In this document: one piece after another, positions 16,307 to 19,832 of the stretch | Layout of the letters: every line of letters begins with the position of its first letter | How positions within the stretch are numbered: the first letter of the stretch is position 1 | Assembly (NCBI GenBank): GCA_934371505.1 | Contig: CAKRNW010000001.1 | Location: forward strand, 1-54,392 | DNA: 54,392 nt | Source: an uncultured Lachnospiraceae bacterium | GTDB lineage: Bacteria; Bacillota; Clostridia; Lachnospirales; Lachnospiraceae | Direction of reading: 5' to 3' | The notes under the pieces: generated by a model | What the model was told of the DNA's origin: nothing | The model's database searches: none | The model's input: only the letters and a program-made list of their open reading frames with translations | Program-made: the position numbers and the translations under genes

Positions 16307-16726
16307 TTACCAGGAAAGAGTCATGGTGAGACGGTTACAGCCGTCCTCATAGGCATATTCCACGGTGTCCATCATGTTCTTTACCATAAAGATTCCCAGT
16401 CCCCCAATCTGCCGATCCTCTGCAGAAAGAGTGGTGTCTGGATCTTTCTTTTCCAGTGGATTGTAGGGTGTTCCCCTGTCCTGAAAGCAAAGGGAAATCC
16501 GTCGTTCTTCAATCCGCTCCTCAATCCGCGCCATGCCCGTTTCCTCCCCGTAGGCGTAGCTTGCAATATTGACAAAAATTTCTTCCGCGCAGATTTCTAC
16601 CACGGTTCTCGTCTCCTGTGGGCACTCTGCTGCCTCCAAATCTTTTTCCAGCAAGGTAAGAAGGGTGTTCAGCTTGTCCGTCTGTGCCTCTAATTCTATG
16701 GTTCTGTTAATTTTCACATCTGCCAT
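16307..16726 (-). CDS. RsbW/SpoIIAB-like anti-sigma-type Ser kinase (HATPase_c_2)
   Basis: 139 aa. N-box EEIFVNIASYAY, G1 QDRGTPYNP, G2 GGLGIFMVKNMMD. Confidence 0.75.
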   Translation of the reverse strand: MADVKINRTIELEAQTDKLNTLLTLLEKDLEAAECPQETRTVVEICAEEIFVNIASYAYGEETGMARIEERIEERRISLCFQDRGTPYNPLEKKDPDTTLSAEDRQIGGLGIFMVKNMMDTVEYAYEDGCNRLTMTLSW

Positions 16727-16728
16727 TT

Positions 16729-17391
16729 TTATTCCCCGTTCTCCAGTATTCCATCCCTGAGATACAGTCTCGGATAGTCCATGTCCCGAATCGCCTCTCT
16801 GTCATGGGTGGCAATCAGGGTGGTAATTCCCAATCCGTTAATCTGCTCCAGCAGCAGCATGATTTCCCGTGCCTGTTTTGGGTCTAAATTTCCCGTGGGC
16901 TCGTCTGCCAGAATACAGTGGGGATTGCCAACAATGGCTCTGGCAATGCACACCTTCTGCTGTTCCCCGCCGGAAAGACTGGTCACAGGTTTGTAAAAGG
17001 CAGCCTCCATTCCCACAACCCGGAGTGCCATGGTCACCTGGGATAAAATATCCCGTTCCTTTGCTCCTGACACCCTCTTTACAATCGCCACGTTTTCAAA
17101 CACGGTCTGCTCCCGCAGCAGTTTAAAATCCTGAAATACAAAGCCTATTTTCCTGCGGTATGCCGGCACATTACGGTTTTTCAGACTACCGATATTTTGT
17201 CCATTGACCCACACCCTTCCGGTGTCCGCTGTCAGTTCCCGCAACAGCAGCCTCAGCAGGGTGGTTTTCCCCGAACCGCTCTGCCCTAAAATAAAGGTCA
17301 TCTGTCCCGGCAGAATATGAAAGCTCACATGGGACAGGGCGGTTACTCCGGTGTCCGGAAAGGTCTTGGTCACATCCTCAAACTGTATCAT
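16729..17391 (-). CDS. FtsE-like ABC ATPase with no cognate permease in the window
   Basis: Walker A GQSGSGKTT, signature LSGGEQQKV, Walker B ILADEPTGNLD. Its length and layout match FtsE. It sits between the STAS and RsbW-like genes. Confidence 0.7.
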   Translation of the reverse strand: MIQFEDVTKTFPDTGVTALSHVSFHILPGQMTFILGQSGSGKTTLLRLLLRELTADTGRVWVNGQNIGSLKNRNVPAYRRKIGFVFQDFKLLREQTVFENVAIVKRVSGAKERDILSQVTMALRVVGMEAAFYKPVTSLSGGEQQKVCIARAIVGNPHCILADEPTGNLDPKQAREIMLLLEQINGLGITTLIATHDREAIRDMDYPRLYLRDGILENGE

Positions 17392-17412
17392 CTGTCACTC
17401 TATGTACCTTTT

Positions 17413-17712
17413 CTACTCGATTTTCAGAATTTTGCTAAAGCCCGACATTTCAAAAATGTTCATCACCACATCGGACACGTTGGTGAGTTTCATGCTGCCT
17501 CCCTTGGATGCCGCCGTTTTCTGCCCGATAAGCAGGGCGCGGAGTCCCGCACTGGAGATGTAGGGCACATTCAAGAAATCCACCACCACATCACTCTTTT
17601 TCTGAAAGGCATTGAGAATCGCCTGCTGGAGCTGGGGACTGGTGTTGGTGTCCACTCTGCCCTCCACTAAAAGTCTCATATAAGTTTCACAATCTGTTGC
17701 GATTACGTTCAT
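17413..17712 (-). CDS. STAS-domain anti-anti-sigma factor (RsbV/SpoIIAA-like)
   Basis: 99 aa. VDFLNVPYISSAGLRALL contains the conserved phosphorylatable Ser. The start overlaps the upstream phosphatase stop (ATGA). Confidence 0.8.
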   Translation of the reverse strand: MNVIATDCETYMRLLVEGRVDTNTSPQLQQAILNAFQKKSDVVVDFLNVPYISSAGLRALLIGQKTAASKGGSMKLTNVSDVVMNIFEMSGFSKILKIE

Positions 17713-19832
17713 TTTCTTTCCCTCTCTTTTTGTATTCTTACTTCAAATGAAAGCATGGTCAGGTCATCGAATTGAGATGCCTTGCCCACAAATTCATCAA
17801 TTTCTTTCTTTACCTCGTTCAAAGTCTCCTTTGGCGTCATGTCTACACATTGATTCAGTGCTGTGAGCATGCGTTCCTCCCCAAACAACTCTTCCTTCCC
17901 ATTGGTTGCCTCCGGAACGCCATCTGTATACAAGAACAGTTTGTCTCCAGGATACAGAGTGATTTCATGCTGGGTATATGGCATGCCCTCCATTCCACCG
18001 ACTACAAAGTCATGACTTTCCCGGATCAGTTCATAGTTTCTGCCGGCACGCATCAATGCCGGGCATTCGTGCCCTGCATTCGCATAAACCAGTCTGCCGG
18101 TACGAAACTCATAGATGCCAAGCCATACTGTGACAAACATGTCTGCCTCATTGTTCTCACACAGCTGATTATTGACTCGTTCCAGTACCACAGCCGGCTC
18201 TTCTCCCAGCTGCGCACGGTTTTTAATCAGTGTCTTTGCAATGACCATAAACAAGGCTGCAGGTACTCCTTTTCCAGAAACATCTGCCATTACCAGTGCC
18301 AGATGCTCTTTTCCTACCAGGAAGAAATCATAGAAATCTCCTCCTACCTCCTTCGCCGGATTCATTGCTGCATAAATGTCAATTTCCTGACGTTCCGGGA
18401 ATGCAGGGAAAATGCAGGGAAGCATGCTTGCCTGGATATTGTTTGCCACATTCAGCTCCGCCCCAATTCTCTCCTTCTCTGCAGTTACCTCCGATAAATT
18501 TTTAATGTATGACTGTAAATCTGAAAGCATTTCATTAAAGGTCTGTGCCAGTTCTCCCACTTCATCACCGGATTCCACCTTCATCCTCACATCCAGATTT
18601 CCATGTCCAATCTTTTCCACATTCTGTGCCAGTTCCTGGATTGGTCTGGTAATTGTTCCCGCAACCGTAAAGGAAATCATAATGACAATCATTCCAACCA
18701 ATGCAAAGAAGATGATAAACCGTATCATTACATTGGAAAGCGTCTTGCTTACCATTTGCTGGGCATCTGCTGTAATGCCATCAATTTCCTGTTTGGTAGC
18801 CACCGAAGGTGCAATGATTTCATTCACATCAATACTGATACACAGTTTCCATCCGGTTTCCTCCAATGTTGCATATGCAAGGTAACAGTCTACACCATCT
18901 ACCTGTGCCTGTACCACTCCGGTATCCTGATTCCTGATTTCCTCCAGAATTGCCTGATTTTCACCAATATGGCTGCTGAGTGTCTGTTCAAAGCCATCCT
19001 TTACAAAATCGGGGTGCGCCAGATACGCAAGCCTGTCATCCAGTACAAAGGCATAACCGCTCTCTCCAATCTTGGTTGCCACAATCTCATTCAACATGTC
19101 CTGGATGGTAATATCCATGGCTACAACACCTTTCATCGTTCCATCCTCCCCTGTGAAACTCCTGGCACAGGTCACGCAGAGTTTTCCGTAGTAATCCTGA
19201 TAGGTATCCATCCAGATGGAGTCTGATGCCTCGGATGCCTCAAGATACCAATCTCTCTTTCTGGGATCATAATCCGGATTGTAAAGGTTTGACCTGGAAT
19301 ACCGGTAGTAAATACCTTCTCTGGTTCCCAGATAGATATTATCCATCATGGGATTGTGTTCCAGTTCCGGTGCAAACAAAAGTTCACAATTGGATAATAA
19401 CCTGACTTCCTGCTGCAGTCTGGATGTGTCCTCCACTCCCGGCGCAAGCATATATTTGGAACATGCTGTACCATCTTCTGTCTCATAAGGAAACGGCAGG
19501 GAATGTCCTGTAAATTCATCCTCCTTTTCATACAATCCGCTGATATATCCAGCTGCACAGTCAATGGCATTGCGTATCCGTCTCAGCTTTTCATTCGAAA
19601 TCTGTGCCTGTTTCTGGGCTATTTTTCCAAGACTGTCTTCCATCTGCTCCTGCAATGCCTGCTTGCTGTCCTCTGAAGCCGTATTTCCCAGCGTGGTGTT
19701 TACTCTCTGAAATTCATTGGTAAGTTTCATCATCTGCAGATAAGAATTGACAGAAATAATCAACAATGTCCCCAGTGACATCAGGAGAATAACCAGTAAA
19801 ATTTTAATTCCAATCTTCATGTTTTTAAACAT
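17709..19832 (-). CDS. Membrane sensor PP2C/SpoIIE-family Ser phosphatase with Cache-like and HAMP domains (RsbU-like), copy 1
   Basis: TM, then a Cache-like segment (DYDPRKRDWYLEA...GVVAMDITIQDM), TM, HAMP, then PP2C motifs GGDFYDF, MADVSGKGVPAALFM and YTDGVPEA. ATG 19832 follows GGTGGAG. Confidence 0.8.
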   Translation of the reverse strand: MFKNMKIGIKILLVILLMSLGTLLIISVNSYLQMMKLTNEFQRVNTTLGNTASEDSKQALQEQMEDSLGKIAQKQAQISNEKLRRIRNAIDCAAGYISGLYEKEDEFTGHSLPFPYETEDGTACSKYMLAPGVEDTSRLQQEVRLLSNCELLFAPELEHNPMMDNIYLGTREGIYYRYSRSNLYNPDYDPRKRDWYLEASEASDSIWMDTYQDYYGKLCVTCARSFTGEDGTMKGVVAMDITIQDMLNEIVATKIGESGYAFVLDDRLAYLAHPDFVKDGFEQTLSSHIGENQAILEEIRNQDTGVVQAQVDGVDCYLAYATLEETGWKLCISIDVNEIIAPSVATKQEIDGITADAQQMVSKTLSNVMIRFIIFFALVGMIVIMISFTVAGTITRPIQELAQNVEKIGHGNLDVRMKVESGDEVGELAQTFNEMLSDLQSYIKNLSEVTAEKERIGAELNVANNIQASMLPCIFPAFPERQEIDIYAAMNPAKEVGGDFYDFFLVGKEHLALVMADVSGKGVPAALFMVIAKTLIKNRAQLGEEPAVVLERVNNQLCENNEADMFVTVWLGIYEFRTGRLVYANAGHECPALMRAGRNYELIRESHDFVVGGMEGMPYTQHEITLYPGDKLFLYTDGVPEATNGKEELFGEERMLTALNQCVDMTPKETLNEVKKEIDEFVGKASQFDDLTMLSFEVRIQKERERK

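Follow-up and report, generated by a model that had tools for sequence, protein, structure and literature searches.

We analysed the regulatory island of an extracellular contractile injection system (eCIS) locus in an uncultured Lachnospiraceae bacterium. The locus lies on a stretch of 54,392 nucleotides (nt) (contig CAKRNW010000001.1 of assembly GCA_934371505.1, positions 1 to 54,392), below called the window. Just upstream of the gene for a Cis15-like AAA+ ATPase there is a module with all three RsbU/RsbV/RsbW-type components of a partner switch: a PP2C phosphatase, a STAS protein and a GHKL serine kinase. All have intact motifs, from which phosphorylation of the STAS protein is predicted. 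The STAS protein is the conserved hub of the island. On balance, we favour a serine phospho-switch that is dedicated to the contractile injection system (CIS), acts via protein-protein contacts and has no linked sigma factor.

The genes of interest are on the minus strand and are transcribed from high to low coordinates. Pfam scans covered every plausible open reading frame (ORF) of the window of at least 150 amino acids (aa). In the order of transcription, the last baseplate-region gene, the block under study and the ATPase gene are as follows.

22477-23547, minus strand: Tail_P2_I-like protein, last baseplate-region gene (Tail_P2_I, 1.4e-06)
20778-22463, minus strand: MFS-type membrane protein with an N-terminal extension, 561-aa gene call (MFS_1, 1.7e-23)
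19825-20781, minus strand: D-Ala-D-Ala-ligase-like (Ddl-like) ATP-grasp enzyme (Dala_Dala_lig_C, 8.5e-32)
17709-19832, minus strand: dCache-HAMP-PP2C phosphatase, 707 aa (SpoIIE, 2.9e-50; dCache_1, 1.1e-17; HAMP, 4.6e-16)
17413-17712, minus strand: STAS protein, 99 aa (STAS, 5.8e-15)
16729-17391, minus strand: FtsE-like ABC ATPase, 220 aa (ABC_tran, 2.7e-34)
16307-16726, minus strand: RsbW-type GHKL serine kinase, 139 aa (HATPase_c_2, 2e-24)
13949-16264, minus strand: Cis15-like AAA+ ATPase, 771 aa (AAA, 6e-28, residues 545-670)

An earlier note, made from the sequence without database searches, had described the phosphatase, STAS, ABC and kinase genes as a tight cassette ending shortly before the ATPase gene. 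The domain matches and the spacing bear this out. The PP2C and STAS genes share an ATGA overlap (17709-17712), the STAS and ABC genes are 21 nt apart, the ABC and kinase genes 2 nt, and 42 nt separate the kinase gene from that of the Cis15-like ATPase. However, the full block has six genes, since the MFS and Ddl-like ligase genes belong to it on the upstream side. The MFS gene starts 13 nt after the Tail_P2_I gene and overlaps the Ddl-like gene by 4 nt, and the latter overlaps the PP2C gene by 8 nt. The PP2C ORF extends to a GTG at 19847; gene callers take the ATG at 19832. Beyond the block, the window also contains a second PP2C gene (4254-5846) and a second GHKL gene (52576-53478). A promoter and terminator scan of 12900-23700 found this region no richer in sites than shuffled sequence. 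The same locus was found on 22 independent contigs of the same species by exact-sequence look-up, and dozens of diverged loci share its core. The arrangement is therefore beyond chance.

The STAS protein matches the NCBIfam family of anti-sigma-factor antagonists, TIGR00377, at 65.2 bits, above the cutoff of 53.45, and its PDB matches are SpoIIAA/RsbV-type proteins. The conserved serine that had been noticed in the motif YISSAGL is Ser54 (codon 17551-17553), and it indeed aligns with the phospho-serine of Bacillus subtilis RsbV in the PDB alignment (6m36_B). The phosphosite pattern SS[AS]GLRAL does not vary among the 62 CIS-linked STAS homologs, whatever the other components of their loci. These homologs score 110-183 bits against the window STAS protein, compared with 26-80 bits for STAS proteins of RsbW loci outside CIS.

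The RsbW-type kinase has the residues E48, E49 and N53 of the N-box, D83-x-G85 of the G1 box and G108-G109-L-G111 of the G2 box, all invariant in 39 homologs, although its RsbW matches in NCBIfam and PDB are weak. The SpoIIE match of the phosphatase spans profile positions 3-191 of 192, and the metal-binding motifs GGDFYD, DVSGKG, YTDG and FDDLT can be read in its translation. Its best NCBIfam match is SiaA, at 105.9 bits far under the cutoff of 700. The ABC ATPase has an intact Walker A motif (GQSGSGKT), signature (LSGGEQQ), Walker B motif (ILADEP) and H-loop (ATHD). Scans of the module with PADLOC and PHROGs produced nothing for the STAS protein, the kinase and the phosphatase, and otherwise generic ATPase matches.

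The earlier note had seen no sigma factor gene in the 54 kb, and this held up in directed searches. No window ORF scored above the Pfam threshold for the sigma-70 family. The sole trace is a Sigma70_r4 match of 16 bits (cutoff 24.1) inside the XRE-type helix-turn-helix (HTH) protein at 1772-2227. Probes for SigF, RpoD region 2 and RpoE were compared by phmmer with the window ORFs of at least 50 aa; they matched nothing there, nor in the roughly 70 CIS-linked loci. The probes do work, since they found five sigma-like ORFs in other loci (93 loci in total). No sigma gene was found on sibling contigs within 10 kb past either end of the window. As the defining sigma partner was looked for and is not linked, we describe the module as a sigma-less one of the partner-switch type.

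Related loci were taken from metagenome contigs and metagenome-assembled genomes, with the view limited to 10 kb, and were annotated by phmmer comparison of the window proteins with raw ORFs. A scan ascertained by the AAA+ protein in human gut and rumen metagenomes (AAA+ identity 61-100%) yielded 41 loci in which the stretch between Tail_P2_I and AAA+ is complete. These form 29 clusters at 90% AAA+ identity, and the counts below refer to a single CIS lineage, with an AAA+ identity of 61% or more. In a search for AAA+ homologs, all of the 120 matches listed were at least 73% identical. No relatives of the AAA+ protein turned up in IMG/VR, whether the protein or its alignment was the query; that viral collection does not contain these loci.

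The regulatory island starts directly after the Tail_P2_I gene in all related loci, and in most of them the STAS gene comes next. A STAS gene is present in 27 of the 29 clusters and an ABC ATPase gene in 22. The RsbW-type kinase was found in 9 clusters (10 if its occurrence elsewhere in the locus is counted), and any PP2C gene within 10 kb in 8. Thus the expected co-conservation of the cassette with CIS loci is seen for the STAS and ABC genes, but not for the four-gene set. The minimal arrangement, Tail_P2_I-STAS-AAA+, occurs in L097/L116 and L104. The Cis15-like ATPase adjoins the island in every related locus; its identity among these loci is 62-86%, a higher conservation than that of RsbW.

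RsbW homologs with 60%, 53% and 65% identity are also found in CIS loci, where STAS and RsbW stand immediately ahead of the AAA+ gene. The contexts of diverged RsbW genes are MFS-Ddl-PP2C-STAS-RsbW-AAA+, without the ABC gene; baseplate-STAS-ABC-RsbW-AAA+, without a nearby PP2C gene; and response regulator-PP2C-STAS-ABC-RsbW-AAA+-toxins, where the upstream 10 kb is free of CIS structural genes. A scan with the RsbW alignment, one genome per species, gave 80 loci at 42-55% identity. Ten of these are CIS loci with the order Tail_P2_I-STAS-ABC-RsbW-AAA+, and the remaining 70 are PP2C/RsbW/STAS cassettes of the ordinary clostridial kind, in which a fusion of PP2C with RsbW is frequent. The RsbW family is thus broad, with one part of it in CIS loci. 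In a rough neighbour-joining tree, which for a 139-aa protein is only indicative, the CIS-linked RsbW proteins fall mostly into two coherent clades. A Ruminococcus locus (L065) was considered as an independent case of RsbW, ABC and CIS and was rejected: its ABC gene is ordinary and is followed on the same strand by two ORFs that probably encode parts of an exporter, and a 1471-aa ORF lies in a prophage-like region.

The second GHKL gene of the window, which is divergent from the CIS operon, and its neighbour encode the following proteins.

52576-53478, plus strand: membrane GHKL protein with two transmembrane segments, a coiled coil and HATPase_c (2.1e-19)
53491-54030, plus strand: SH3_3 protein with a transmembrane anchor (SH3_3, 9.7e-09), a constant partner of the GHKL protein in related loci

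The GHKL protein has no HisKA match, and no histidine upstream of HATPase_c is conserved in 33 aligned homologs. It therefore lacks the phospho-acceptor histidine of a DHp/HisKA domain that defines a two-component histidine kinase. Homologs of this histidine-less protein are present in 17-18 of the 29 clusters, and 25 clusters have either it or RsbW. In the loci without RsbW it sits directly after the STAS-ABC pair. Since it takes the position of RsbW there, it is a candidate alternative STAS kinase. In some related loci an OmpR-type response regulator gene stands beside the GHKL gene, directly before cis15. Accessory enzymes are swapped between loci, with RsbW or, as a candidate, the histidine-less GHKL protein as the kinase and one or two membrane PP2Cs as the phosphatase.

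STAS-ABC(-RsbW) and cis15 are not adjacent in most relatives: between them stand a small leader ORF and the GHKL/SH3 pair, which is often encoded on the opposite strand. There the STAS-ABC(-RsbW) genes are the tail of the structural operon, and cis15 has a leader of its own. The cassette had been described as wired directly upstream of the AAA+ gene. This is accurate for the window, with its 42-nt junction, but given the intervening genes in most relatives the junction is a feature of the clade and not of the system. The earlier note had named two findings that would speak against a sigma-less phospho-switch dedicated to the CIS: a cognate sigma gene just outside the window with an unrelated regulon, or absence of the cassette from orthologous CIS loci. 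The switch withstands both, the first as far as the sibling contigs reach (10 kb past either end of the window).

The topology of the phosphatase is a transmembrane segment, an extracytoplasmic dCache_1 domain, a second transmembrane segment, HAMP and the PP2C/SpoIIE domain. Hydrophobic segments at about residues 9-38 and 366-401 bracket the Cache domain. The amino-acid-binding motif of dCache_1AA sensors has been defined, with mutational support, as YxxxxRxWY, 13-17 residues, Y, 27-34 residues and D in the membrane-distal module (PMC8915833). A regular-expression match found this motif complete in the phosphatase, with spacing identical to that of PctA.

19113-19271, minus strand: dCache_1AA amino-acid-binding motif in the sensor domain of the PP2C phosphatase (YDPRKRDWY, 14 residues, Y, 28 residues, D)

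The motif is also present in the ortholog from L009. Given the complete motif, the predicted signal is an amino acid or a related ligand with amine and carboxylate groups. A further phosphatase gene lies at the distal end of the locus, preceded by an acyltransferase gene.

5833-6963, minus strand: Acyl_transf_3 protein
4254-5846, minus strand: second membrane HAMP-PP2C phosphatase, 530-aa gene call (SpoIIE, 7.7e-47; HAMP, 1.1e-06)

The second phosphatase has a different extracytoplasmic domain, intact catalytic motifs and a catalytic region whose motif content is nearly that of the first. Its presence in the locus suggests that the switch has two phosphatase inputs.

The Ddl-like enzyme matches the Ddl subfamily of NCBIfam at 209.5 bits, below the cutoff of 243. 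The grouping Ddl-MFS-PP2C-RsbW is also found in a locus without CIS (L084, 3832-9975). MFS-like proteins accompany PP2C in the CIS loci L053, L082, L101 and L113 and in the non-CIS loci L021, L084, L085 and L093. These recurrences suggest that the Ddl-like ligase and the MFS protein belong to the input side. One may speculate that they make and export the ligand of the phosphatase. In several loci the PP2C-associated MFS-like proteins are long (750-1000 aa). Those of about 970 aa were considered as MFS-Ddl fusions, and this was rejected as they have no Ddl match.

The ABC ATPase is close to FtsE. It scores 251.8 bits against the FtsE equivalog TIGR02673, under the cutoff of 264.85; its 12 best PDB matches are all FtsE (5e-54 to 7e-47), and the next family follows at about 1e-38. 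Neither FtsX nor another ABC-type permease domain turned up in the scanned window ORFs, nor beside the orthologs in related loci. In L122, L123 and L125 the FtsE-like ABC gene is instead downstream of cis15. The Cis15-like ATPase has a Cdc48/AFG2-type D2 domain according to the PDB search. Its counterpart in Photorhabdus, Pvc15, reportedly helps to load payload into the PVC tube (PMC11495950). The STAS protein MlaB binds the ABC ATPase MlaF; Thr52, the equivalent of the phosphosite, is in the interface, and the substitution T52E reduces binding (PMC7367683). The authors of that study raised phospho-regulation of MlaFB as an open possibility (PMC7367683). By analogy, the most plausible partners of the window STAS protein would be the adjoining FtsE-like ABC ATPase and the Cis15-like ATPase. 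The link between STAS and ABC is at the level of adjacency, the two genes being neighbours in 22 of the 29 clusters.

These observations may be combined in the following scheme. The membrane PP2C would sense an extracellular amino acid or similar ligand via its dCache_1AA domain and dephosphorylate Ser54 of the STAS protein, which the RsbW-type kinase would phosphorylate again. The unphosphorylated STAS protein would bind a CIS-specific partner, either the FtsE-like ABC domain or the Cis15 AAA+ protein. Assembly, loading or release of CIS particles would thereby be tied to an external cue. In a classical partner switch the target is held by the anti-sigma kinase. As the STAS protein is kept in 27 of the 29 clusters and the RsbW arm is dispensable, the likely output is STAS itself, like in further sigma-independent switches, and not RsbW sequestering a target. 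The whole of this post-translational gating, in which the dCache-PP2C reads an amino-acid-type signal, maybe made and exported by the Ddl-like and MFS proteins, RsbW or the GHKL protein opposes it, and STAS switches the FtsE-like domain, Cis15 or both, is put forward tentatively: it is possible, and we would not call it probable.

Several points weigh against the switch as we read it. The target is something that we infer entirely. Neither RsbW nor PP2C is found within 10 kb in the majority of related loci. A complete phospho-cycle may therefore be limited to some loci, or unlinked enzymes may serve in it. The annotation of loci by phmmer comparison may let diverged components escape. Genes on the opposite strand stand between STAS-ABC and cis15 in many loci, which weakens the argument from adjacency to Cis15. 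The pairing of STAS and ABC is not obligatory, since two clusters have ABC without STAS and at least five have STAS without ABC. The dCache_1AA motif is unmatched in the L096 ortholog. Finally, the sensitivity of the sigma probes to extracytoplasmic function (ECF) sigma factors is limited.

One alternative is that the target is encoded elsewhere in the genome. The RsbW-type kinase would hold a remote sigma factor, or the STAS protein of the CIS locus would antagonise a host anti-sigma factor such as SpoIIAB, and the module would act on transcription, either of the CIS operon or of some wider regulon, and not on the machine. The homology of the three proteins to RsbU/RsbV/RsbW and SpoIIE/SpoIIAA/SpoIIAB is in keeping with this. 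Moreover, the spore-coat genes cotJA, cotJB and cotJC, seen on a sibling contig (L174, 11320-12383) 1-2 kb past the right end of the window, adjoin the locus. They make it probable that the host forms spores, and SpoIIAB and sigma-F are to be expected in it. The OmpR-type regulator directly before cis15 in some loci indicates that transcriptional inputs do occur in the island. However, the window, its 10-kb extensions and about 70 CIS-linked loci yielded no sigma gene, and the 93 loci overall had only five sigma-like ORFs. RsbW, the would-be holder of the sigma factor, is missing from about two thirds of the related CIS loci, which keep STAS. The genes also stand last in the structural operon and not first, which would be odd for a master switch of that operon's own transcription. 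We therefore regard a remote sigma factor as unlikely, though worth serious consideration. Transcription could also be controlled without one. The GHKL kinase CapK phosphorylates the conserved serine of a STAS protein and controls an adjacent anti-phage operon without a sigma factor (PMC13373217). By this model the kinase would phosphorylate a STAS-containing DNA-binding repressor and de-repress the adjacent operon. However, CapS is a fusion of STAS with a winged HTH domain and CapK has the architecture HTH-STAS-GHKL (PMC13373217), whereas the window STAS protein (99 aa) and GHKL kinase (139 aa) are bare single domains with no DNA-binding domain. The module proteins have no PADLOC match either. 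We rejected this model on domain architecture; it is hardly credible here.

Another alternative places the output in the cell envelope. The phospho-state of STAS would switch the FtsE-like ATPase, as in MlaB-MlaF, and a host FtsX-type partner with a wall hydrolase would open the wall or lyse the cell for particle release; Cis15 would not be a target. FtsEX activates wall hydrolases in Firmicutes. The adjacency of STAS and ABC in 22 of the 29 clusters, the closeness of the ABC protein to FtsE in a locus with no permease, the MlaB-MlaF precedent (PMC7367683), and the constant neighbourhood of a cell-wall-binding SH3_3 protein and membrane proteins would all fit. However, the window has no recognisable FtsX, hydrolase or holin, FtsX is brought in purely by analogy, and the ABC gene is missing from L009/L010 and from several further loci that retain STAS. 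We rate an envelope output as rather improbable, and a little below a remote sigma factor. Finally, a mobile signalling cassette might have landed in the CIS locus and be carried along with no regulation of the CIS. The RsbW family is widespread in Clostridia outside CIS (70 of the 80 RsbW-ascertained genome loci are non-CIS), the Ddl-MFS-PP2C-RsbW group is also found outside CIS (L084), and the accessory content of the island is highly variable. Yet STAS keeps the same position in 27 of the 29 clusters while AAA+ has diverged to 61% identity, its phosphosite is invariant, the CIS-linked STAS and RsbW proteins group on their own, and translational coupling ties the module to neighbouring CIS genes. 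Passive carriage is thus very improbable. The serine phospho-switch dedicated to the CIS remains the reading we favour.

Its closest functional analogue is the BtrU/BtrV/BtrW module. In the bsc type III secretion system (T3SS) locus of Bordetella, the PP2C BtrU, the STAS protein BtrV and the RsbW-type kinase BtrW are needed for secretion and not for sigma release, and the ECF sigma gene btrS stands beside them. The likeness is that genes for a PP2C, a STAS protein and an RsbW-type kinase lie within the locus that encodes a secretion machine. In contrast, the machine here is an eCIS and not a T3SS, the host is Gram-positive and not Gram-negative, no sigma gene is linked, and the island adds an ABC ATPase, MFS, a Ddl-like ligase and a second GHKL protein. 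Among contractile machines, the closest case is type VI secretion (T6SS), where the threonine-phosphorylation pathway PpkA/PppA/Fha1 (TagQRST) gates assembly. Common to both would be a signal-dependent, post-translational gating of a contractile machine by phosphorylation, with a PP2C-type phosphatase as a switch. However, the T6SS is membrane-anchored and its pathway uses a Hanks-type Ser/Thr kinase and an FHA substrate, where the window has GHKL and STAS proteins and an eCIS; no Pkinase or FHA domain was found by Pfam in the scanned window ORFs.

The families are homologous to those of the B. subtilis switches RsbU-RsbV-RsbW-SigB and SpoIIE-SpoIIAA-SpoIIAB-SigF, with the same conserved phospho-serine, N, G1 and G2 boxes and metal motifs. 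Unlike in these, there is no sigma gene after the kinase gene, the kinase is dispensable in most loci, and the phosphatase is a membrane dCache-HAMP sensor. MlaF-MlaB is similar in that a small STAS protein is encoded beside an ABC nucleotide-binding protein. However, the STAS fold of MlaB is truncated, neither a kinase nor a phosphatase is known for it, and the permease MlaE is the partner of MlaF, whereas the ATPase of the window is an orphan of FtsE type, and a kinase and phosphatases are present. In the SypE/SypA switch of Vibrio fischeri and the SiaA/B/C and HsbR/HsbA switches of Pseudomonas, a STAS or STAS-like protein is the output and its phospho-state sets the partner. These switches control biofilm, cyclic di-GMP or motility. 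The switch considered here differs from them in its place, the locus of an injection machine, and in having no response-regulator or diguanylate-cyclase partner.

A literature search found no paper linking contractile injection systems with STAS domains or anti-sigma antagonists, and large eCIS surveys list neither PP2C phosphatases nor STAS proteins nor kinases of the partner-switching type among the associated components. The regulators named in these surveys are of the GerE, BTAD and RfaH types only. In the enrichment table of Geller et al. 2021, SpoIIE is 2.0-fold enriched (q = 0.088, not significant), HATPase_c_2 is 1.85-fold enriched (q = 0.26, not significant), and ABC_tran is depleted (0.11-fold). 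CIS activity controlled through serine phosphorylation had been proposed as new. It would be new for extracellular, phage-tail-like CIS and as a STAS-based switch, but given the T6SS pathway, phospho-control is not new for contractile systems in general.

The island is embedded in a complete eCIS gene set at one locus, and Pfam scans found all the components by which Afp/PVC-like systems are recognised. The structural genes upstream of the Tail_P2_I gene are the following.

41225-41950, minus strand: Pvc16_N protein, Pvc16/Afp16-like cap (8.7e-26)
38283-40013, minus strand: sheath protein (Phage_sheath_1 and Phage_sheath_1C)
37739-38239, minus strand: gp19-type tube protein (Phage_T4_gp19, 1.7e-32)
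31198-33024, minus strand: two CIS_tube proteins (Pfam)
29150-29968, minus strand: spike protein (Phage_base_V, 6.8e-22)
28663-29193, minus strand: gp25 protein (GPW_gp25, 4.7e-21)
23557-28781, minus strand: two Baseplate_J proteins (Pfam)

The first gene of the CIS operon is a small conserved ORF.

52300-52485, minus strand: conserved 61-aa leader ORF

It is a called gene in a sibling contig. A profile made from 46 small ORFs of related loci matches it at 2.8e-12, and the encoded peptide ends in ...GIN..K.[IV]FD..A.F. with no family match in PHROGs. In 19 of the 29 related clusters a homolog is found immediately upstream of cis15, like a promoter-proximal leader.

Two genes follow cis15 in the window.

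13020-13907, minus strand: GNAT-like protein, 295 aa, following cis15
7118-13120, minus strand: large ORF of about 1966-2000 aa with no Pfam domain, following the GNAT-like gene

The GNAT-like gene follows cis15 in many related loci, but not in all. The protein of about 2000 aa is probably a payload. The slot of the large ORF is occupied by ADP-ribosyltransferase-type toxins in L009 and L013, and L101 has an Ntox11 toxin within the island. A second, diverged AAA+ paralog is found downstream of cis15 in L105-L107, L112-L115, L121, L147, L152, L154, L158 and L166; the window has one AAA+ gene only.

At the left end, positions 1-4000 have a GC content of 0.40, compared with 0.45-0.51 elsewhere in the window. 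Two genes lie within this low-GC stretch.

1772-2227: XRE/ImmA-like regulator
2248-3015: AbiEi-like protein

In a sibling contig (L175) different genes occupy the place of 1-4000; the region is thus variable, stands apart from the CIS island and marks where the island ends. The exact sequence of the window STAS protein was found on 234 contigs, which suggests a common gut organism.

An outside signal probably switches these eCIS of Lachnospiraceae in gut and rumen, by way of serine phosphorylation. Regulation of eCIS is little understood apart from a few transcription factors, and a conserved phospho-switch would offer experimental handles: a single serine, a single kinase and a single sensor domain whose class of ligand can be predicted. 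These could show when and why particles form or leave in the mammalian gut. The module might also serve as a controllable on/off device for engineered eCIS delivery vehicles. If the proposed gating is true, the system would be the first eCIS gated by a signal and would exemplify in nature a phospho-regulated pairing of STAS with an ABC ATPase, so far hypothesised only for MlaFB, and sigma-independent partner switches would gain a new class of output.

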